From Patescibacteria group bacterium (GTDB taxonomy: Bacteria; Patescibacteriota; Minisyncoccia; Sungbacterales; JBBTQR01): 46,779 nucleotides of DNA. A model generated the notes under the pieces. That model was given only the letters and a program-made list of their open reading frames with translations, was not told where the DNA came from and did not search any database. Below are positions 1,691 through 46,779 of this stretch, in pieces; position 1 is the stretch's first letter, and each line of letters begins with the position of its first letter. Where the stretch lies: positions 1-46,779 of the forward strand of contig JBBTQR010000003.1 in the NCBI GenBank assembly GCA_038065595.1. Direction: 5' to 3'. Made by a program: the position numbers and the translations under genes.

Positions 1691-3535
1691 TTACGCTGAT
1701 GCTATTATCGTTTCAAACTCTTCCTTCTCAATTGTTTCTTTTTCTATGAGAACTTTAGCAAGTTTATCTAAAAGCGCGCGTCGTTTAGTTAGAATTTCAC
1801 GAGCTTTTTTATACGCACCATCTATAATGCTTTTTATTTCATCATCAATCAAGCGCGCGGTTTCTTCGGAGTAATTCTTTTGGGAGACGATCTCTTTCCC
1901 TAAAAATACCGCCTCTTCGCGCTCCCCAAAAACTATTGGGCCCAATTTTTCAGACATACCGTATCGCATAACCAGGTTTCGCGCCAAATCAGTAACTTTC
2001 TGCAAATCATCACTCGCACCAGTCGTAAGCTCTCCAAAAACAATCTTTTCAGAAGCATATCCGCCAAGTGCCACAGCTAATTCATCCAAGAAATGCGAAT
2101 GTGTAAACATTTTGCGATCTTCCGCGGGAATTTTAAGCGTATAACCAGCCGCACGGCCACGCGACACAATACTGATTTTATGCACTGGATCGGCGTTTGA
2201 CAAAGACGCAGAAACCAGCGCGTGCCCTCCTTCGTGATATGCGGCGATTTCTTTTTCTTTTGAAGAAAGCAAATGGCTTTTGCGTTCAGGTCCCAAAAGC
2301 ACCTTTTCAATTGAATCCAGAAGATCAATTTGATGAACTTGTTTTTGATTTTTTCGAGCGGCAAGAATCGCGCCTTCATTGATAATATTTGCCAGATCCG
2401 CACCCGAAAACCCGGGGGTCCGTTCAGCAACACGGCGCACCGCGACATCTTCGGCAAGATTTTTATTTTTTGAATGAATGGTCAAAATCGCTTCACGGTC
2501 ATTTACATCGGGAAGATCCAAAATTACGCGCCGATCAAAACGACCCGGCCGTAGGAGCGCTGGATCCAACACATCGGGACGATTCGTCGCCGCAAAAACG
2601 ATTACCCGCTCGTCAGTATCAAACCCGTCCATCTCAACGAGAATTTGATTTAATGTTTGTTCCCGTTCATCATGACCACCGCCCATTCCCGCGCCACGAA
2701 GCCGTCCGATTGCGTCAATTTCATCAATAAAAATAATTGAGGGGGCTGTTTTCTTCGCTTGTTTAAAAAGATCGCGTGTTCGCGCCGCACCAACACCCAC
2801 AAACATCTCAACGAACTCAGAACCCGACAAATGGAAAAACGGAACATTTGCTTCACCCGCCACAGCTCGCGCGAGCAATGTTTTTCCAGTCCCGGGAGCA
2901 CCCATAAGCAAAACGCCTCGTGGAATCCGTGCGCCAATATCAAAAAATTTCTTTGGGTTTTTAAGAAAATCAACAACCTCTTCAAGCTCCTGCTTCGCTT
3001 CTTTAACGCCGGCAACATCCTTGAAAGTAATTCGTTCTTTGCCACCCGGAATCACAAGCCGTGCTTTTGACTGCCCAAAAGTAAACGCTTGCATACTCCC
3101 CCGTTGTAACTGGCGAGCCGAAAACCAAATGAAAAAAGCAATGATAGCGATTGGAGCCAAAATAGGAAGCGCCATACCAAGCCAAAACGAAAACCCTGAG
3201 GCAGACTTAACTTCCAAAGAAACAGCGGAAAGTTTTTCTGAAACAACGCCGTAATTTTTAAATGTTTCTGAAAGTCCTGCTTCAATTTCTTTTTCAGCTG
3301 ATTGTCGCGCTCCATCTTTAAGTGTAATATCAAGAGCATTTTCCCGTACAACGATTTTTTCTACCGAGCCGGCATTAATTTCCGCAACAAGCTCGGAGAG
3401 CGTTATTGTTTTTATATTTTCGCCGACTCCAACCACAAGCGAATAAATGACCGTAACAAGAAAAAGAATTCCAAATGCCCACATAATTTGGCTTGAAAAT
3501 TGTCGCAAAGGTTTTTGAATATTGTATTTTTTCAT
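1691..3535 (-). CDS. ftsH: ATP-dependent zinc metalloprotease FtsH
   Basis: Two N-terminal TM helices; AAA Walker A GAPGTGKT; Walker B IIFIDEID; zinc site HEGGHA. Start placed at MKKYNIQ (3535) and not at the upstream in-frame ATG at 3568. Confidence 0.95.
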
Positions 3536-3585
3536 AGTTAAATTACCTATAAGATAGCACTGTATCATTAAATTTTATAGAAATC

Positions 3586-3616
3586 AAAAAAAATGCCCCG
3601 ACGCCATCGTCGGGGC
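3586..3616 (-). terminator. Intrinsic terminator of the 472-aa orphan gene
   Basis: 9-bp GC-rich stem gccccgacg/cgtcggggc, loop ccat. On the minus strand it is followed by T8 (plus-strand A-run 3586-3593). Confidence 0.8.
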
Positions 3617-3634
3617 AACACACACCTCCTTTTT

Positions 3635-5053
3635 CTATTTTCGCGCTTTCCAATTCTCGACTGCTCGAGCGCGAAGATCCTCATATTTATTGCTCATTCC
3701 CTCACAAATGATCTCCGCAATTTTATCGAGCGAAAGCGAGGTTGGTGGCACATCAGGAGCCGTCAACGAGCCGTTCATAAGCCAGCCCGTGAGGCGATGG
3801 AAAAACCAGCTCCTCTCCTCCTTTGGACCGTCATCGGAAGTGAGGATGGTCCAATCCGCTGTGCAAGAAATTCCTCTCGCATTGCACTCGGCTTCACGAA
3901 CCCCAGCCGTGATATACGACATAACATGAGTAAACGGCTTTTGATCGGTTTTCAGTTTACGGCCATTGTCGTATGTAACCTCATAGCTTCCCGGGAAAAC
4001 TTGCACCTGCCCCTTACCGTTTTTCTTAACGACACAGCAGGCGTAATACCCCAAATCCCGTGCCATGAGATACGCGTGAACCCGCTCATCGTCTGATTCA
4101 ATAACGGCAACAACCCGCTTTTCACATCGCGACACGAAACCATCAAAAACGGTAAGCGTAACTTCGGTCAACCTTGCATTCTTAGCCTCCGTAGCACTCT
4201 CGGTGTGAAACCAATGCTGATCTTGAAGCTCCGCCTCAAGAATCGGCCGCACCCACTCGCGAGCGTCAACGCCATCACGAACGAGCAACATAATGCAGTC
4301 AAGGATGTCAAACGGCTGAAATTGCATATTTTCTCTCCGCTTTTCCAGCCACCTCTCAATTCTCTGCGTCGCCAGCTCGTGATACGAGCCACGCATGGCA
4401 CTAAGTTCCAAAACAAGCAAGCGAACAGCATCACGATAACGATCCTGTCGTTCTACTTTTAGAATCGGGCCTTTTGTCGCAGCGTCAAAAACCGCAGACG
4501 CGATCTCTCTAACCACATTCGCGTCATATTCGGCGCGATGAAGCGTTTTTACAACGCTTCCCAAAGAAAACGGCCGAGACCCTTTAATGTCGTCTTCCGC
4601 AACCGCTTTCAGAAGATGCGTGAGACGAGGATCGGAAACGATGAAGGTTTTTGATCGTTTTCCGTCCTTACTTGTAATCTTGAAAACTCTGCCGTCCCTC
4701 TCTAATCCGTAAAAATTATCCGACGAAACCTGATCCCGAACTAAACCAAGATCCCGTGCTACGAGCGTTGCCTCACACTCAACTTTGCCAGTGCCGTGTT
4801 CATCGTACTTCCCGCGACCGACACCAACAAAACTTACATTGCTCCTTCCTTCAAGCTCAACGCCACGAACAATAAATCGCCCTTCCCGATCGCGCAAACT
4901 CGCTCCACCATCGGTCGTGTACAAAACTTCAATGCCACGGCTTATACCAGGAAACCTTTCCTCGGTTCCACAAAACTCAATAAGTCGTTGAGCGTAAAGA
5001 TCCGACAGCTGTGAAAGCACATGTGTAACGATGGTATGCCTTTGAAAATCCAT
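3635..5053 (-). CDS. Hypothetical soluble protein, 472 aa, no recognisable domain
   Basis: Long uninterrupted ORF with a strong SD (AGGAGG 5 nt upstream of the ATG), its own promoter and its own terminator. No TM helix or signal peptide, and no nucleotide-binding or nuclease motif was recognised. Confidence 0.8.
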   Translation of the reverse strand: MDFQRHTIVTHVLSQLSDLYAQRLIEFCGTEERFPGISRGIEVLYTTDGGASLRDREGRFIVRGVELEGRSNVSFVGVGRGKYDEHGTGKVECEATLVARDLGLVRDQVSSDNFYGLERDGRVFKITSKDGKRSKTFIVSDPRLTHLLKAVAEDDIKGSRPFSLGSVVKTLHRAEYDANVVREIASAVFDAATKGPILKVERQDRYRDAVRLLVLELSAMRGSYHELATQRIERWLEKRRENMQFQPFDILDCIMLLVRDGVDAREWVRPILEAELQDQHWFHTESATEAKNARLTEVTLTVFDGFVSRCEKRVVAVIESDDERVHAYLMARDLGYYACCVVKKNGKGQVQVFPGSYEVTYDNGRKLKTDQKPFTHVMSYITAGVREAECNARGISCTADWTILTSDDGPKEERSWFFHRLTGWLMNGSLTAPDVPPTSLSLDKIAEIICEGMSNKYEDLRARAVENWKARK

Positions 5054-5125
5054 TCTCCCCTCCTTATGTGTAAATTGTAAAAGTACTTATTTTCTAAACG
5101 CCATAATCCATAAACTAATTATTAA

Positions 5126-5154
5126 TTTATATCATTTATATTACTCATTGTCAA
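5126..5154 (-). promoter_or_regulatory. Sigma70-type promoter of the 472-aa gene
   Basis: Read on the minus strand: TTGACA (5154-5149), 17-nt spacer, TATAAA (5131-5126), about 70 nt upstream of the ATG at 5053. Confidence 0.6.
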
Positions 5155-5190
5155 ATAAAATAAGCGGGGAATAAAGCGTAAAATAGGCAA

Positions 5191-5230
5191 AAGAAAAAGC
5201 CGGCACCTGTGCGTATTGCACAGTGCCGGC
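5191..5230 (-). terminator. Intrinsic terminator of the 501-aa orphan gene
   Basis: 13-bp stem with one bulge (gccggcacctgtgc / gcacagtgccggc), loop gtatt, then a T-rich run on the minus strand (plus aagaaaaa, 5191-5198). Confidence 0.8.
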
Positions 5231-5260
5231 TACTTGCTAACGCGTTTTTTTTAACGCGTG

Positions 5261-6766
5261 CTAGAAACGCCTACCGCCTCGTGGTTGAGCGTTCTTTGCC
5301 TGGCGCATCCAAGCGTGAACTCGCTTGGGAACTTCGCCAAACAGAAACTCAGACGGGACTTCGTCAAAATCCGAGTCTCCTGTTTTTCCACACTCTGCGG
5401 AGTCATGGAAAATGAGAACCGCCGCCATCGGACTGACCTCAACAACCCTGATCGTCTTGCCGTCGCTCTCTAAAAGAGCGTCAAGGAAGCCGACCTCCTC
5501 GCTACCGATTTTCCAGCCATCAACGAGGATTGGCACACGCCCCGGCTTCTTAGCCCAAAACTCCGCGATCCCCAAGGTTGCCCCTTTTGAAATCCGCAAA
5601 CGCGCGTCGCTGAAAACCTGATTGCGCTCACGGCGAGTATCTTCAAACAGCGTATTGATGTCCGTCGCCACTACCTTCGTAGCATAAGCGGCAAACCGTC
5701 GCTCAAAGAAACTCCTTAACTGAAAATTTCTGACCTCAAATGAACACTTACCCGATCCGTGATACACAATCTTTACTGGGACAGGGCCCATGACCTTCAC
5801 TTGATCTTGATTGATATATGAGAAGGCGCTTTCGGCGAACGGACGATAGGAAATGCGAGTGATAAAAAGCCTATCAGCCCATCCTTTTCGCACCATCTCA
5901 ACACCGACCGTCAACGATTTCCAGGTTTCAGTCATGACGACCGTCCCTGGTCTACCGGCAAGAACCGCAAGAAAATCTCCTGTGTCTTTTACCAAATCTG
6001 GAGACAGGAGAAATCCGGACACTTCACCGGAAACAACATCTCGCTCAAGATTTTTTGCCTCCAGTAAAGCGTTATAGAGATCTAAAGACTCCTTGTTGGA
6101 GCTTGGATCTCCATTCCGCATCGGGAATGGAACGAGAGCAAAACCTTCAAAATAGAGCTTTTTCGTAATCGCCCTATTGTGATTCGCCTCACGACCATCC
6201 ATAACATTCGCGTACGAAAGCTCAACCCCCAAACGAGCTGCGACTTCCACGGCAATCATTCCGTCTTTCAAGCCCGCCATGATTCGCACATATTCCCGTT
6301 TCCGATACGCGTGAAGCTCGTCTACCAAGTCATCGTCCTCGGCAATGCTCCCAACGGAAACAAAGTGCCGAAGATTCTTCTTTGAAAAATCAAAGAAGAA
6401 AACTCTCTTACCCTTCTCATGTCGGTCGGCCTCGCGGAGTGAATTGATCTTAACTCCGTTGAGAATTGCCTGAACATATGGAACCTTCCCATCAAGAATC
6501 ACATTCATGAGATTCTTGACTGATTTTGCATGAACAGCAAAGACATTCTTCTTTGCTCCTTGCGCCAGTTCCCCGATTTGTTTGAGCAATGCCCGCGCAC
6601 CCGAATCGCCTTGCTTCGCCGCCGCTTCAAGCATCCTCATTTTTTCTGAATCGGCGGAAACTTCAGCCGCAGTAAGCTGATCAGCGGCTTGATCCTGTTG
6701 CTTCCTAACACTGCGCAAAACTGCATTCACCCGCTCACTCAAATCCGTCGTATATTCTTCGCTCAT
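5261..6766 (-). CDS. Hypothetical soluble protein, 501 aa, no recognisable domain
   Basis: Long ORF with SD AGGAG 9 nt upstream of the ATG and its own terminator. No TM helix or signal peptide. The GSGKC stretch is not a Walker A motif. Confidence 0.8.
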   Translation of the reverse strand: MSEEYTTDLSERVNAVLRSVRKQQDQAADQLTAAEVSADSEKMRMLEAAAKQGDSGARALLKQIGELAQGAKKNVFAVHAKSVKNLMNVILDGKVPYVQAILNGVKINSLREADRHEKGKRVFFFDFSKKNLRHFVSVGSIAEDDDLVDELHAYRKREYVRIMAGLKDGMIAVEVAARLGVELSYANVMDGREANHNRAITKKLYFEGFALVPFPMRNGDPSSNKESLDLYNALLEAKNLERDVVSGEVSGFLLSPDLVKDTGDFLAVLAGRPGTVVMTETWKSLTVGVEMVRKGWADRLFITRISYRPFAESAFSYINQDQVKVMGPVPVKIVYHGSGKCSFEVRNFQLRSFFERRFAAYATKVVATDINTLFEDTRRERNQVFSDARLRISKGATLGIAEFWAKKPGRVPILVDGWKIGSEEVGFLDALLESDGKTIRVVEVSPMAAVLIFHDSAECGKTGDSDFDEVPSEFLFGEVPKRVHAWMRQAKNAQPRGGRRF

Positions 6767-7036
6767 GGCTTTAATCTCCTTCTTCCGCTATCAGCGCATA
6801 CTATTTATGTATTTGCCCCAACAGCATTTTCACGGTTAAGAAACTTATCCCTACATCCACACATCACAAAAAAGATTACAACCAAAAATCGCAAATATAA
6901 TACACAAAAAAGATGCCTAGAAACAAGCTATTTATCTCCTATAAAGACCTCCTTTGTTTAAGTTTTTAAAGTTCTCACCCACATTACAACAATCAAACAA
7001 ACTCTATTGTTATACTTGCACAGTATACTATTTTTA

Positions 7037-7067
7037 TTAAAAAAGTCAACCTTTCGGTTGATTTTTT
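7037..7067. terminator. rpsA terminator (bidirectional architecture)
   Basis: Stem tcaacc/ggttga, loop tttc, with an A-run upstream and a T-run downstream. Lies immediately 3' of the rpsA stop on the minus strand. Confidence 0.65.
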
Positions 7068-7083: not shown

Positions 7084-8292
7084 CTACTTTTTTCCTTCTC
7101 CGTGTTCTTCCTTTTCTTCTTCTTTTTTTGAAAGCGCCAAAGACATCCGATGTTCTTGCAAATCAACTGAAGTGACTATAAATTCATATTCTTTACCAAT
7201 CTCAATCGTTTCAAGCATTTTTGCTTCAGTACCAAATTCAGAAATATGAATTAAGCCCTGAATTTCGCGCGATTCTCCGTTCGGTAATACAAATACCGTC
7301 TTCACAAATGCCCCAAAAGAATTAAATTTAACAATAGTACCCTTTGCCGTATCGCCCTTCTTTATAACTTCTTGGAACGCAAGCCATGGGTCATCTTTCA
7401 ACGCCTTCAACGAAAGTGAGATTTTTGTCCCTTCAATGGTAATTATTTTTACGCGAACCTTCTCGCCAATCTTTACGACATCCCGTGGATCATGAACCAA
7501 TTGCCAATCAACTTCGGAAACATGAATCAATCCCTCAAGCCCGTCAGCGAGACGCACAAAAGCTCCAAATGGAGCGATTGCCGTGATTTCTCCATCAACA
7601 CATTCCCCGATGGTATGCTTGTTTACAAATCCTCTAAGCGCATCATTATCAAGTTCGCGTTCGGAAAAAATAAGCTTTCCTTCGTCCTGGTGAACATCAA
7701 TAATTTTAACTTTAAAATCTTTTCCCAAGAATTTCTTTAATTCTACAAAAATTTTTTCTTTATCACCTCCCTCTACGCGCGGATAATTTTTCTGTGAAAG
7801 CTGGGAAACTGGCAAAAATCCAACAACACCGCTGTGTTCCATCATAAGACCCCCGCGATTCACTTCTTTAACGCGAAGAGTAAGCGTTGCTCCTGTGCGC
7901 ATTATTTCCTGAAGATCTACCCATAACTTTTCTTTTCCCGCTTCTTTTAATGAAAGCTCGGGATACCCCTCTATAATAGAACTCTCAAGCTCCACAACCT
8001 TTGCTGTTACCGCATCTCCAATTTTTAGACCCCTGATAACATGCTGGGCTTCATAAAACTCTTTCCCAAAAACAACACCGACTCCTCGCGCGTCCATATC
8101 AATAAAAAGCCTGTTTCCTTCACGAAAAAGAATCGTACCGTCAACAATATCCCCTATCTTTATATACATGCCCGCGTCAATTTTCTGTTTTAATAGGGCC
8201 TCCATAGGATGCTTCGCAATATCGCGCTGTTTGATTTCAAAATCAGCGTCTTTTTCCGATTCAACCTCGGTTGTATTTGTATCGTTTACCAT
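7084..8292 (-). CDS. rpsA: 30S ribosomal protein S1 (multiple S1 RNA-binding repeats)
   Basis: Repeated S1-domain signatures (G..V.G.V..i..fGaFV...gl.GLiH.SE) and a Glu/Lys-rich C-terminus. Start placed at MVNDTN (8292). Confidence 0.9.
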   Translation of the reverse strand: MVNDTNTTEVESEKDADFEIKQRDIAKHPMEALLKQKIDAGMYIKIGDIVDGTILFREGNRLFIDMDARGVGVVFGKEFYEAQHVIRGLKIGDAVTAKVVELESSIIEGYPELSLKEAGKEKLWVDLQEIMRTGATLTLRVKEVNRGGLMMEHSGVVGFLPVSQLSQKNYPRVEGGDKEKIFVELKKFLGKDFKVKIIDVHQDEGKLIFSERELDNDALRGFVNKHTIGECVDGEITAIAPFGAFVRLADGLEGLIHVSEVDWQLVHDPRDVVKIGEKVRVKIITIEGTKISLSLKALKDDPWLAFQEVIKKGDTAKGTIVKFNSFGAFVKTVFVLPNGESREIQGLIHISEFGTEAKMLETIEIGKEYEFIVTSVDLQEHRMSLALSKKEEEKEEHGEGKK

Positions 8293-8464
8293 GATTGAAC
8301 GAGTATAGTAAAAGAAACAAAAAAAAGCAACCAACAAATGAACGGGCATCTGCTTTATTTTTTATTTATATAATGCTAAACTCAACGAGCTTTTAGCTTT
8401 CAGTGTATGATTTTTAGGTGCCGATGCATCTTTGTTATACACTATGCGCTATACATTATACGCT

Positions 8465-12648: not shown

Positions 12649-13980
12649 ATGGAAAAAGGTAAAATTGTTATTTTTGGAATTGGCGGACTCATTGTTATTG
12701 TTTTTTTGTTTATGCTTGTCGGCATTCTTCCTGGAATCAAAAAAAACCTGGGCTCTACCAACTCCGTGCTTACGGTTTGGGACTTTGAAGACTTACCTAC
12801 GGTGTGGACGGAAATTAGCAAAGCGTACAGCGCACAAAATCCAAGTATAAAAATTAAATACATACAAAAAAACCCCACAACATTTGAAAATGAGGTTATC
12901 AATGCGTTAGCGTCCGGCACAGGTCCTGACATCTGGGCATTTAAACAATCGTGGATACTAAAACATAAAAATAAAATTTTTCCTTTGCCGGAAATAGCAC
13001 TCCGATTTACCAAATCTGATTTTCAAAGAATTTTTGCCGATGTAGCGCATGTATTTATTATTGACAAACAAATCATCGCGCTCCCGACAGCGATTGATAC
13101 GCTTGCCCTCTATTACAATAAAGATATTTTCAATAGCGAAAACATCCCAAATCCACCACAAAATTGGGATGAGCTGACTGAAGTTGTTAAAAAAACAACA
13201 AAAATAAGCCCTTCGGGAAAAATAATCAGAAGCGGGATTGCTCTGGGAACCGCCGGCAACATTGATAATGTCGTTGACATAATCTCCGCGCTCTTTCTGC
13301 AAAATGAGCTTACCGTCTTAGACATTTCAAAAGAAGAGTCAAAATCAGATATCCGTAGCGGAAATAATTTCGGAGGAATTAACGCGCTTAAATTTTATAA
13401 TTCGTTCTCGAATTCAATTCACAAAAATTATTCATGGTCTGCTGTTTTACCAAATTCAATCCAAGCGTTTGCCGACTCAAAAACGGCAATGATTATAGGA
13501 TTTTCCAAAGATTACGAGAAAATTATCAAAAAAAATCCGCGGTTAAATTTTGGCATCGCCCCCCTACCCCAGCAAAAAGATCAACCTATTAAATTTAATT
13601 ATGGCATTGTTAGCGGACTTACCGTTTCCAAAAATTCACGAAATCCACTAGAAGCGTGGCGTTTTATCGTATACGCTACGACCGATTCAAATGCCGTAAA
13701 ATTTTACCTCAACGCGTCAAATAACCCACCAGCATACCGCCGATATGTAACCGCTGACTTTTTAGCCCCTTACCTTGAAGTATTCAAAGCGCAAATTCTC
13801 TCCGCCCGAACATGGGTTCAGGCAGATGAACGGGTCGTTTTAATGATATTCCAAAATATGATACAATCTATACAGGGTAGCTCATACAATTTTGATGGTG
13901 TGCTTGGCGCCACAAGTAAACAGCTTGAAGAGCTCACGAATCCGTATATAATAAAGCCGGATGATAAAGAGTCAAAATAA
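12649..13980 (+). CDS. Extracellular solute-binding protein (ABC family-1-like), membrane-anchored
   Basis: N-terminal TM anchor, then the usual pattern of sugar/oligosaccharide binding proteins (GTGPDIW..., ALYYNKDIF, W.EL). No permease or ATPase gene is adjacent. Confidence 0.7.
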   Translation: MEKGKIVIFGIGGLIVIVFLFMLVGILPGIKKNLGSTNSVLTVWDFEDLPTVWTEISKAYSAQNPSIKIKYIQKNPTTFENEVINALASGTGPDIWAFKQSWILKHKNKIFPLPEIALRFTKSDFQRIFADVAHVFIIDKQIIALPTAIDTLALYYNKDIFNSENIPNPPQNWDELTEVVKKTTKISPSGKIIRSGIALGTAGNIDNVVDIISALFLQNELTVLDISKEESKSDIRSGNNFGGINALKFYNSFSNSIHKNYSWSAVLPNSIQAFADSKTAMIIGFSKDYEKIIKKNPRLNFGIAPLPQQKDQPIKFNYGIVSGLTVSKNSRNPLEAWRFIVYATTDSNAVKFYLNASNNPPAYRRYVTADFLAPYLEVFKAQILSARTWVQADERVVLMIFQNMIQSIQGSSYNFDGVLGATSKQLEELTNPYIIKPDDKESK

Positions 13981-26668: not shown

Positions 26669-26831
26669 TTCTTTATTACGGCTAGCGATGAGCGAAATGA
26701 AGCCAGCAAGGATTCATTTCGTCAGCGCGAAGACGGAACAAGGGTCAATACCGCGTGGCTCTGCCACGCGAGAAAACGAACGAAGCGAGTTCCGACGATA
26801 CCTCGGGACTTTGCCCCGAGGAGCTTTATTT
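26665..26831 (+). repeat. Family-2 multi-hairpin element (series of perfect hairpins)
   Basis: Hairpins lie at 26665-26681, 26691-26720 (9 bp), 26751-26769 (8 bp) and 26800-26821 (7 bp). The segment 26780-26827 matches the reverse complement of 46731-46779 at about 46 of 49 positions. Confidence 0.8.
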
Positions 26832-44131: not shown

Positions 44132-44309
44132 TTCGCTAGGTAATAAAGAGTACTTTGTTCCCGTCGCTTTTCGCCTCCTCGGCGAAACACAGGGAAACAC
44201 TTTTTGTCCGCCAGAGGCGGATAAAGTTTCCCGTCAAAGCTTCCCCAAAGCTTTGACCTCGGAAGCATACGCTGCTGCGTACGCTTCCCGATCTTCGCTA
44301 GGTAATAAA
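44132..44309 (+). repeat. Family-1 multi-hairpin repeat, copy C (44209-44309), preceded by an extra tail motif and more hairpins
   Basis: The copy matches copies A and B over about 100 nt. The tail ttcgctaggtaataa also occurs alone at 44132-44146. Additional hairpins lie at 44170-44186 and 44209-44221. Confidence 0.85.
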
Positions 44310-44351: not shown

Positions 44352-45083
44352 TCAGACTGCGCGTATCGTCAGAATAAGAAGAAGAAGTACCAACAAGGAG
44401 TTGTATAGCGTGTGGTAAGCGGTACTCGTCATTACTGCCTCATCCTCCAAATCTGATACTACCCCTACTCTGATTTCGCCCCTTACACCAACATCTCTAG
44501 CTCGCTCTTTGACTTGCTGTGTTTCTTCCAAAAAAGAAGCGAAAACCTTATTCTGATTGCGTAATGCAGTTCGATACTTACACGCATAGAAGAAACCGAC
44601 ACCAATGAGCGCGATAGCCGCTGCCAATGGAACGCCAACAAAAAGATGAATTAACCCAAACTTCACGGATTGAATCCAAATCTCTCTCCACTCATGATAG
44701 CCCCGTCTAAAAACCCTCTCTTCATAATGAGCCATAAACGGCAGTGCTATCAATAGGGTAGCGAAGAATAGCGGTGGCAGAAGCCGAACAAAGACGCTCG
44801 GCGATCCAGAACTTTCCAATACTGGCGCGATGATAATGTTGCCACCGCCTTTAATAAAGAGATTGAGCCAACCCCAACGAAAAATAGGAACATACTCCCA
44901 CAGAGCAAGAAAAGCGATGCTCGTCAGCGACAAAGCGCCAAGAACCTCAAAGAACATCTTAAAACGAAACATTTTCCACACAGACCAGACAAAACTCATA
45001 CGGTCCCTGTTGGAATAGAGTTGATAAACAACACTGCCTATTGCCAATATAGCCAGCGGTAGCTTGAAATCAGTCCAAACCAT
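44352..45083 (-). CDS. CPBP-family intramembrane glutamic endopeptidase (CAAX protease-like)
   Basis: Multi-TM protein with motif 1 EERVFRRG, motif 2 FGLIHL and motif 3 YHTLYN. Confidence 0.8.
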   Translation of the reverse strand: MVWTDFKLPLAILAIGSVVYQLYSNRDRMSFVWSVWKMFRFKMFFEVLGALSLTSIAFLALWEYVPIFRWGWLNLFIKGGGNIIIAPVLESSGSPSVFVRLLPPLFFATLLIALPFMAHYEERVFRRGYHEWREIWIQSVKFGLIHLFVGVPLAAAIALIGVGFFYACKYRTALRNQNKVFASFLEETQQVKERARDVGVRGEIRVGVVSDLEDEAVMTSTAYHTLYNSLLVLLLLILTIRAV

Positions 45084-46689: not shown

Positions 46690-46730
46690 GTTCATAATTT
46701 CAGTCAAAACCGCTTTATGAAAAATAAAAT

Positions 46731-46779
46731 AAAGCTCCTCGGGGCAAAGCCCCGAGGTATCAGTCGGAACTCGCTTCGT
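46731..46779 (-). repeat. Family-2 repeat copy, inverted, truncated by the window end
   Basis: Its reverse complement matches 26780-26827 (about 46 of 49 positions) and includes the hairpin cctcgggg..ccccgagg. Confidence 0.8.

Follow-up and report, generated by a model that had tools for sequence, protein, structure and literature searches.

The gene pair: layout, distribution and inheritance

The stretch of DNA analysed here, referred to as the window, comprises the 46,779 nucleotides (nt) at positions 1 to 46,779 of contig JBBTQR010000003.1 (assembly GCA_038065595.1) of a Patescibacteria group bacterium. Between ftsH (1691-3568) and rpsA (7084-8349) it carries two large open reading frames (ORFs), gene B (5261-6766, 501 amino acids (aa)) and gene A (3635-5053, 472 aa), with all four genes on the minus strand. 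Both ORFs were confirmed at the positions given for them by an initial annotation, which had described them as an inserted accessory cassette, possibly an anti-phage or host-interaction module. It is tentatively proposed below that A and B form a two-subunit module particular to Patescibacteria, in which A would bind, and probably hydrolyse, a phosphate-containing substrate.

Each gene of the pair was found to have its own expression signals. Gene B is preceded by the Shine-Dalgarno sequence AGGAG (6776-6780, minus strand; 9 nt 5’ of the ATG at 6766) and gene A by AGGAGG (5059-5064, minus strand; 5 nt 5’ of the ATG at 5053). A promoter-like site of gene A lies at 5126-5154 on the minus strand, with TTGACA (5154-5149) and TATAAA (5131-5126) separated by 17 nt, and a TG at 5134-5133 makes it an extended -10 site (TG-n-TATAAA). 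This site was missing from the output of a consensus promoter scan, since its -10 ends in A rather than T. Intrinsic terminators on the minus strand were identified 3’ of B (5186-5231), consisting of a GC-rich hairpin (5198-5231; free energy -30.4 kcal/mol, z-score -5.5) and a T-run, and 3’ of A (3586-3617), consisting of a hairpin (3594-3617) with a stem of 10 base pairs, eight of them GC, followed by T8. The Shine-Dalgarno sequences, the promoter-like site of A and the two terminators had been described in the initial annotation and are present as described. A further promoter-like site 5’ of B (7022-7049, minus strand) consists of TTGACT and TATACT separated by 16 nt, matches the consensus at 10 of 12 positions and overlaps the rpsA terminator (7046-7061). 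If this site is used, B would have an AT-rich leader of approximately 250 nt (6767-7015). No Rfam family was found in this leader, nor anywhere in the cassette or the pair loci. A few kb from the pair in two other lineages, with no evident connection to it, Rfam identified a group I intron (L005:762-1040, 86.9 bits) and a LOOT RNA (L006:2535-2650, 72 bits).

This layout is conserved in all lineages examined. The spacer between B and A measures 152-333 nt, and in every case a strong intrinsic terminator directly after B is followed by an extended -10 promoter-like site before A. A terminator equivalent to that of the window was found after B in L005, L006/L013, L012, L027 and L008, and an extended -10 element (TGnTATAAT) at the matching relative position 5’ of A in L005, L006, L012, L027 and L001. 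Judged from these sequences, autonomous expression signals are a conserved property of the pair.

Relatives of the two proteins are few. A collection of 5.8 billion proteins yielded eight relatives of A and two of B, and an exhaustive HMMER search of 1.84 billion representatives yielded five clusters of B; a B profile search gained no family members beyond P0010. No relatives of A or B were found in 2.9 million viral contigs or 72,556 plasmids. All named genomes encoding relatives are Patescibacteria, and three relative-bearing contigs labelled Gammaproteobacteria are probably mis-binned. The initial annotation had proposed that the two genes form an accessory pair, and a co-occurrence test was positive, as B followed by A on the same strand was also found in at least three further divergent lineages of Patescibacteria. 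The pair loci were grouped as L005/L012/L031, as L006/L007/L013/L032 (which includes a Niyogibacteria metagenome-assembled genome (MAG)) and as the lineage of the window. The A family exists in a long form, to which A of the window belongs, and a short form. B lies directly 5’ of every long-form A for which there is enough upstream sequence (window, L005, L006/7/13/32, L012, L031), while no B gene was present within the flanks fetched for approximately 16 short-form loci. Identity between lineages is 24-31% for B and 36-40% for A, such that B diverges faster than A; since these values are low, the linkage of the two genes is considered to be old. The pair is rare and patchily distributed, and its flanking genes differ from lineage to lineage.

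The closest relative of the window is a groundwater MAG from Hainich (GCA_964365285.1). Ratios of nonsynonymous to synonymous substitution rates (dN/dS) against this relative were 0.175 for A and 0.109 for B, compared to 0.046 for ftsH, 0.126 for rpsA and 0.023 for gyrA. By this measure A and B are functional genes under purifying selection. The dS values of both genes are within the range of neighbouring genes and the outer junctions of the cassette are identical in arrangement in this relative, and the pair has therefore been inherited vertically since that split. Att-like repeats were looked for and no repeats bounding the cassette were found, nor was a tRNA integration site found at the cassette or at the pair loci. 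The proposal that the cassette had been inserted is consequently not borne out by its boundaries, its dS values or its junctions.

In this relative the two genes lie on different contigs, B on L008:10001-14609 and A on L001:1-11419. B is followed by rpsO, an NYN gene and pnp, while A is preceded by genes for LeuRS, TsaD, PhoU, a 685-aa protein, an integrase and a CARDB/peptidoglycan-binding protein, together with dispersed repeats. The breakpoints of homology correspond to window positions 5189 and 5093, inside the spacer between B and A, and 5094-5188 is the sole part of the cassette missing from the rearranged relative. As the breakpoints are located inside the spacer, the adjacency of B and A is ancestral.

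Dispersed repeats with an 85-nt unit and a palindromic core (GTCAAAGCTTCCCCGAAGCTTTGAC) were also observed in the window, at 17-101, 1290-1322, 1531-1615, 26735-26831, 44258-44309 and 46727-46778, where they flank an HtrA-like gene and recur elsewhere. In the close relative they occur at L001:9661-9867 and 13732-13783, at the rearrangement junction 5’ of A and downstream of ftsH. By sequence these repeats look like an element of the repetitive extragenic palindrome (REP) or miniature inverted-repeat transposable element (MITE) type, and they probably explain the breaks of three assemblies approximately 160-220 nt upstream of A.

Protein families A and B

An AlphaFold2 model of A built from eight sequences had a predicted local distance difference test score (pLDDT) of 86.1 and a predicted template modelling score of 0.79. 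Comparison of this model to the predicted viral structures of BFVD using Foldseek gave matches over 373-428 columns at ranks 1-10 (probability 0.66-0.96, E-values 5e-4 to 1.3e-2). Functional names are attached to five of these matches, each of which belongs to the DHH superfamily; among them are ‘exopolyphosphatases’ of Bacillus phages Bobb and Hakuna and DHH phosphohydrolases of PaBG and Harvfovirus; the other five are uncharacterised or without a name. NrnB of AR9 and a DHH phosphohydrolase of Hokovirus followed at ranks 17-18. In the PDB, the best match was an uncharacterised Helicobacter pylori protein (6mtz, E-value 1.5e-3) and the second-best distinct match a pAp phosphatase of the DHH family (8a8k, E-value 3e-2). 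These results provide moderate fold-level evidence that A has a two-domain fold of the DHH/DHHA1 type.

Nine residues of A are invariant in its family, namely T10, H11, G77, G81, D84, H86, D155, N427 and G428. Conserved patterns follow strand 1 (TH...[HQ].[DS][ED]) and strand 3 (G.GGG.[YF]DEH). The first of these gives a variant motif I, H11-x3-[HQ]-x-[DS]-[ED], in place of DxD, and D155 is the candidate motif IV. The resulting cluster of His, Asp and Glu residues at the C-terminal ends of strands 1 and 3 of the N-terminal domain sits where DHH enzymes bind metals.

A genome scan identified the short form of the A family (349-371 aa) at 13 genome loci and 3 metagenome loci; those named are P0008, L014-L026 and L033-L035. 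The short form has the motif TH-x-R-P-H-L-D-E and ends in a basic tail with four cysteines, C..G.C...C.WY..GL.RCR (residues ~300-345 of P0008; L014-L026), which by its spacing looks like a zinc knuckle or ribbon. The long form (~470 aa) reads TH...Q.SD, two putative metal ligands being changed with respect to the short form (H15 to Q and D17 to S), and the Cys tail is absent from all long forms. The short form is approximately 120 residues smaller, and the long form has insertions at residues ~105-139 (beta), 194-276 (helical) and 355-375 (beta), all confidently modelled. A PDB profile search with the short form P0008 returned nothing useful.

Sequence homology of the A family to a known domain was detected for ChrB_C (PF09828). 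Six of ten short forms matched this Pfam family with E-values of 3.5e-5 to 0.09, the best reaching 24.6 bits against a cut-off of 25; window A and the other long forms, searched alone, gave no significant match to it. Ten of 14 weak tblastn hits in PLSDB (7.3 Gb of plasmids) lay in genes annotated as ChrB. A profile was prepared from seven ChrB proteins, each encoded next to a chromate transporter, and its comparison to the A-family profile with hhalign gave a probability of 86.2% (E-value 4.9e-6, 127 columns), with residues 5-196 of A corresponding to the C-terminal domain of ChrB. The sequences thus support the N-terminal domain of the A family being a distant homologue of ChrB_C, at the level of a superfamily and not of family membership. 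No solved structure related to ChrB was found by a sequence-profile search of the PDB. On sequence and model, A is best described as a derived member of a family that has no name and that combines a ChrB_C-like N-terminal domain with an overall DHH/DHHA1-type fold. This family is uncharacterised and, by the distribution of its members, restricted to Patescibacteria.

The N-terminal part of B is helical, its C-terminal core is conserved (D.W.., DALLE.DG..I, P.R..AW) and its tail is basic (RGGRRF). Searches of Pfam, PHROG, PADLOC and NCBIfam assigned no B member to a family, and the B alignment has no conserved catalytic-looking residues. A helix-turn-helix at residues 166-183 was considered and rejected, the sole match being a SHOCT-like motif in one member (E-value 1e-4). 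B was likewise rejected as an analogue of ChrB_N and as a relative of A, as it is unlike both ChrB and A. By these searches, B is an orphan without detectable relatives outside the Patescibacteria group.

The initial annotation had stated that neither protein has a recognisable domain. This holds for the family libraries, in which neither protein had a Pfam, NCBIfam, PADLOC or PHROGs match at an E-value below 0.07, and neither belongs to an ordinary housekeeping family; it does not hold for A, given its fold and the ChrB_C homology of its family.

Further genes related to, or next to, members of the pair were observed. At L027:1982-2308, a partial gene after the B homologue P0011 encodes a sequence with A-like spacing (NRSPLDKIA ... 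VDLGENKYH ... CAGSATEFVVKLCGV), without the TH and DEH residues and without a significant score against the A profile; this may be a degenerate A-like partner. At L028:164-4440, a shortened B-like protein (P0014, 391 aa, with the middle third absent) is encoded directly 3’ of the gene of an NYN-domain protein (329 aa). These genes adjoin ftsH and tRNA-Ile(tat), and the contig ends 34 nt past the B-like gene. A third ORF, F12 (138-153 aa; L005:3442-3858 and L012:98-559), lies 42-52 nt 5’ of B in the L005/L012 lineage only. F12 is 66% identical between L005 and L012 and has two small beta-barrel-like repeats (GDRLIVRKGG..., GKEYRGRV...GECLV.FRD), with no significant Pfam match and no counterpart in the window.

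Codon bias and mRNA structure

The G+C content at third codon positions (GC3) was 0.482 for A and 0.512 for B, compared to 0.372 +/- 0.030 for the other 29 ORFs of the window, which places them 3.7 and 4.7 standard deviations above. The atypical composition that had been suspected from hand counts of Arg and Lys (~44/26 for A and ~17/45 for ribosomal protein S1) was thereby confirmed, and the counts themselves were close to the computed ones (44/25 and 17/41). In other lineages GC3 was 0.76-0.77 for B and 0.51-0.57 for A, with neighbouring genes of these AT-rich hosts at 0.31-0.47. The anomaly starts and stops with the B ORF and affects mainly third codon positions; in B of L012, AAG makes up 98% of Lys codons, while a neighbouring gene uses it for 25%. 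In the comparison of L005 with L012, the proportion of synonymous differences (pS) is saturated for A and F12 (0.71-0.77) and is 0.54 for B, even though the B protein is more diverged. The GC3 bias is therefore maintained, rather than being left over from an import and gradually lost. An overlapping antisense gene was rejected as the cause of the GC3 of B, as no conserved antisense ORF was found.

Folding of the mRNA was then compared to that of sequences in which synonymous codons had been shuffled, keeping the protein and codon usage. Whole-gene shuffling gave z-scores of -4.25 (window), -9.93 (L005), -5.85 (L006) and -6.10 (L012) for B, and -3.49, -0.65, -3.51 and -2.90 for A in the same order; the two shuffle tests applied to B of the window gave -4.25 and -5.7. 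Ten neighbouring genes had z-scores of -1.8 to +1.65, and some 30 neighbouring genes were mostly between -2 and +2, with outliers at -2.7, -2.2 (block shuffle only), +3.4 and -5.8 (an unidentified ORF). An artefact of GC content or local heterogeneity was rejected, since block-limited shuffles agree and GC-rich ordinary genes have a z-score of about -1.1. The excess structure in B is distributed along the ORF, with the 5’ end open. Short-form A genes often have GC3 above that of their neighbours, and four of six had z-scores of -3 to -10. At L028, z-scores were -5.7 for the B-like gene and -7.9 for the adjacent NYN-domain gene, and both likewise exceed their neighbours in GC3.

Deviating values were also observed for two ORFs outside the pair and its family. 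A gene near a short-form A (L034:13714-14946) had a z-score of -5.8, yet an ordinary GC3 of 0.36. In the window, a 243-aa ORF (44352-45083, minus strand) is a further compositional outlier (GC3 0.455, Arg/(Arg+Lys) 0.67), and it adjoins the dispersed-repeat copy at 44258-44309.

Proposed function and comparison with known systems

The interpretation that we favour, with a probability of roughly 0.45, is that of a Patescibacteria-specific two-subunit module, in which A is a DHH-like, ChrB_C-related and probably hydrolytic phosphate-binding protein and B is a non-catalytic partner of its long form. A would be cytoplasmic, and its two domains would place it in the fold class of DHH/DHHA1 phosphoesterases, to which NrnA, pAp phosphatase, RecJ and MYG1 belong. 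Since the conserved His/Asp/Glu cluster is at the metal-binding place of DHH enzymes, A most likely binds a phosphate-containing substrate, such as an RNA 3’ end, short oligonucleotides or a nucleotide, and would probably hydrolyse it. The ancestral short form would act alone with its zinc-knuckle-like Cys4 tail. The long form would have lost this tail, changed two residues of motif I and gained three insertions. As the long form occurs only with B, B is most likely a non-catalytic partner that would dock on these insertions; it may supply substrate recognition or regulation, with a basic tail of its own. Separate transcription units, in the order B, terminator, promoter and A, could let the dosage of each be set independently. 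The strict co-occurrence of long-form A and B is the main argument for a joint function, with the insertions as the presumed interface. Catalysis, substrate, physical contact between A and B, and the role of B are what we infer from these data. The structured mRNAs of A-family genes, B and the L028 NYN gene (z-scores -3 to -10) would lend indirect support to an activity directed at RNA.

A number of observations weigh against this interpretation. Foldseek TM-scores of A are low (0.2-0.39) and its E-values modest (5e-4 to 1e-2); low TM-scores are expected because A is a two-domain protein with large insertions, although the strength of this evidence is still limited. The Pfam families DHH (PF01368), DHHA1 (PF02272) and UPF0160 were unmatched at E-values up to 1 by A, by eight members of alignment A2 and by ten short forms, and PDB sequence-profile searches with A profiles returned only chance matches (PhnH, and gp120 through ‘LLNGSL’). 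Membership of the MYG1 family was rejected as unproven, since hhalign of profile A5 with human MYG1 (PDB 24ah) gave a probability of 2.4% (E-value 0.02), with the motifs in register. The canonical Asp of motif II is the invariant G77 across the A family, motif III reads D84-E85-H86 (DEH) and not DHH, and the GGGH of DHHA1 is absent, with NGSLT at that place. Given these non-canonical motifs and the loss of two motif-I ligands in the long form, long-form A could be a binding protein and not an enzyme, and ChrB_C itself is a sensor domain rather than an enzyme (PMC3817168). The AlphaFold model of B, built from two sequences, was unusable (pLDDT 32.5). The splitting of the pair in the closest relative indicates that the adjacency of B and A, while ancestral, is not obligatory.

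That A senses a ligand in the manner of ChrB is an alternative to which we assign a low probability. Long-form A would then be non-catalytic and would sense an oxyanion or nucleotide through its ChrB_C-like pocket, with B as its partner for output or regulation. The homology between the A family and ChrB_C, whose conserved region in ChrB is needed for the response to chromate, is consistent with such a role, as are the two putative metal ligands missing from the long form and the lack of conserved catalytic-looking residues in B. However, no chrA or other transporter was found nearby, A has no ChrB_N domain, B is unrelated to ChrB and no DNA-binding motif was confirmed in it. The A family also retains D84-E85-H86, H11 and D155, which are absent from ChrB, and the second, DHHA1-like domain of A fits an enzyme. 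An anti-phage or conflict system was judged to be similarly improbable. In such a system B would sense infection and A would be a nuclease or nucleotide-degrading effector, and the cassette would move horizontally among Patescibacteria, in keeping with its rare and patchy distribution, with flanking genes that differ in every lineage, with GC3 far off the host value, with separate promoters and with a B that evolves faster than A. An integrase and dispersed repeats are also found beside A in the close relative, although it is only in this rearranged genome that an integrase is near A. Against a defence role, PADLOC-DB models contained no family for A or B at E-values up to 1, the neighbours of the pair at the loci examined are housekeeping or unrelated genes with no known defence genes or defence island among them, and the viral contigs and plasmids searched hold no relatives. 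Nor does horizontal movement agree with the lack of bounding repeats and of a tRNA integration site, or with vertical inheritance and ordinary dN/dS in the window lineage, and the retention of the GC3 bias over long divergence argues against simple recent import. The anti-phage or host-interaction module suggested in the initial annotation was thus not supported.

The codon bias itself may be linked to the activity of A, though this is a speculative idea that we regard as unlikely to be correct. The A family, whose long form would have B as its partner, would act as an RNase or phosphoesterase confined to Patescibacteria and would attack AU-rich RNA that lacks structure, and its own genes and those of its partners (B and the L028 NYN gene) would be selected for G/C-ending codons and structured mRNA, such that their transcripts escape the enzyme. 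Such self-immunity, encoded at synonymous sites, would account for GC3 values as high as 0.77 in particular genes of genomes whose GC3 is 0.31-0.47. By far the least probable explanation is that the cassette was left behind by a mobile element or prophage. B would then be a decayed virion or packaging protein, and the pair would serve no function in the cell. In its favour are a weak match of 66 residues between the B profile and a phage portal protein (E-value 0.007), weak matches of two B members to a terminase PHROG (E-values 0.13-0.19) and a base composition foreign to the host. The matches, however, fall short of significance and involve only Ala/Gln-rich helices, and that to the portal protein was judged to be compositional. 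Relatives are also absent from the viral contigs searched. Purifying selection on the two genes, which are intact, and the conserved pairing across lineages without other phage genes nearby largely refute this explanation.

Patescibacteria have tiny genomes and their turnover of RNA and nucleotides is poorly understood, and the A family is a lineage-restricted, uncharacterised family that appears to link the DHH phosphoesterase fold with the ChrB_C sensor domain, its two-gene version having evolved with an orphan, B. If A were an analogue of nanoRNase or pAp phosphatase, it would fill a housekeeping gap in these bacteria. The combination of GC-rich codon bias and excess mRNA folding is gene-specific, long-maintained and measurable from sequence alone, and if it does reflect escape from the activity of the module, it would represent a novel form of self-protection, and other RNases could be found through this sequence signature.

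Compared to known systems, the A family, its long form, B and their pairing match no family in the libraries searched, while the fold class of A is a known one. The DHH/DHHA1 superfamily (NrnA/NrnB, pAp phosphatase, RecJ, GdpP, family II pyrophosphatase/exopolyphosphatase) shares with A the two-domain architecture, the best Foldseek matches (~375-425 columns) and acidic/His clusters at the C-terminal ends of strands 1 and 3 of the N-terminal domain. A differs from it in its variant motifs I-III, in lacking GGGH and a sequence-profile match, in having three large insertions, and in its obligate partner gene, which is an orphan. Among DHH proteins, the motif spacing of MYG1/UPF0160 is most like that of A, with TH...H.DE, [DG]VGG, YD[HE]H and D..G corresponding in order. 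MYG1, a DHH-motif protein, is a 3’-5’ RNA exonuclease (PMC6582341). Its PDB chains include E-to-A (HCDE) and D-to-A (DVGG) variants, and the Asp of DVGG is Gly in the A family. MYG1 was outside the top 50 Foldseek PDB matches of A, from a library that may predate the MYG1 entries, and comparison of the ChrB and MYG1 profiles was not significant.

Among known families, sequence homology to the A family has statistical support for ChrB_C (PF09828) alone, and the two have the pattern VT[HR]....[LV]D[ER]IA..WL[IL]R[RK]F ... FD ... C..[TF][LE] ... GL.DPAL ... D[IL] in common. ChrB is the chromate-responsive regulator of chr operons and senses oxyanions through its ChrB_C domain. Its response to chromate requires the conserved C-terminal region (PMC3817168). 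ChrB also carries a ChrB_N domain and is encoded next to chrA, whereas A has neither, no chrA being present in the window or the pair loci; conversely, ChrB is without the DHHA1-like second domain, TH, D84-E85-H86, H11 and D155 of A. A further close counterpart of A is the stand-alone short form of its own family. This form differs in its intact TH.RPH.DE, its basic Cys4 tail and its lack of a B partner, but is clearly homologous to the long form (24-34% identity, hidden Markov model E-values 1e-50 to 1e-121), has the same core motifs and, like the genes of the pair, tends to high GC3 and structured mRNA.

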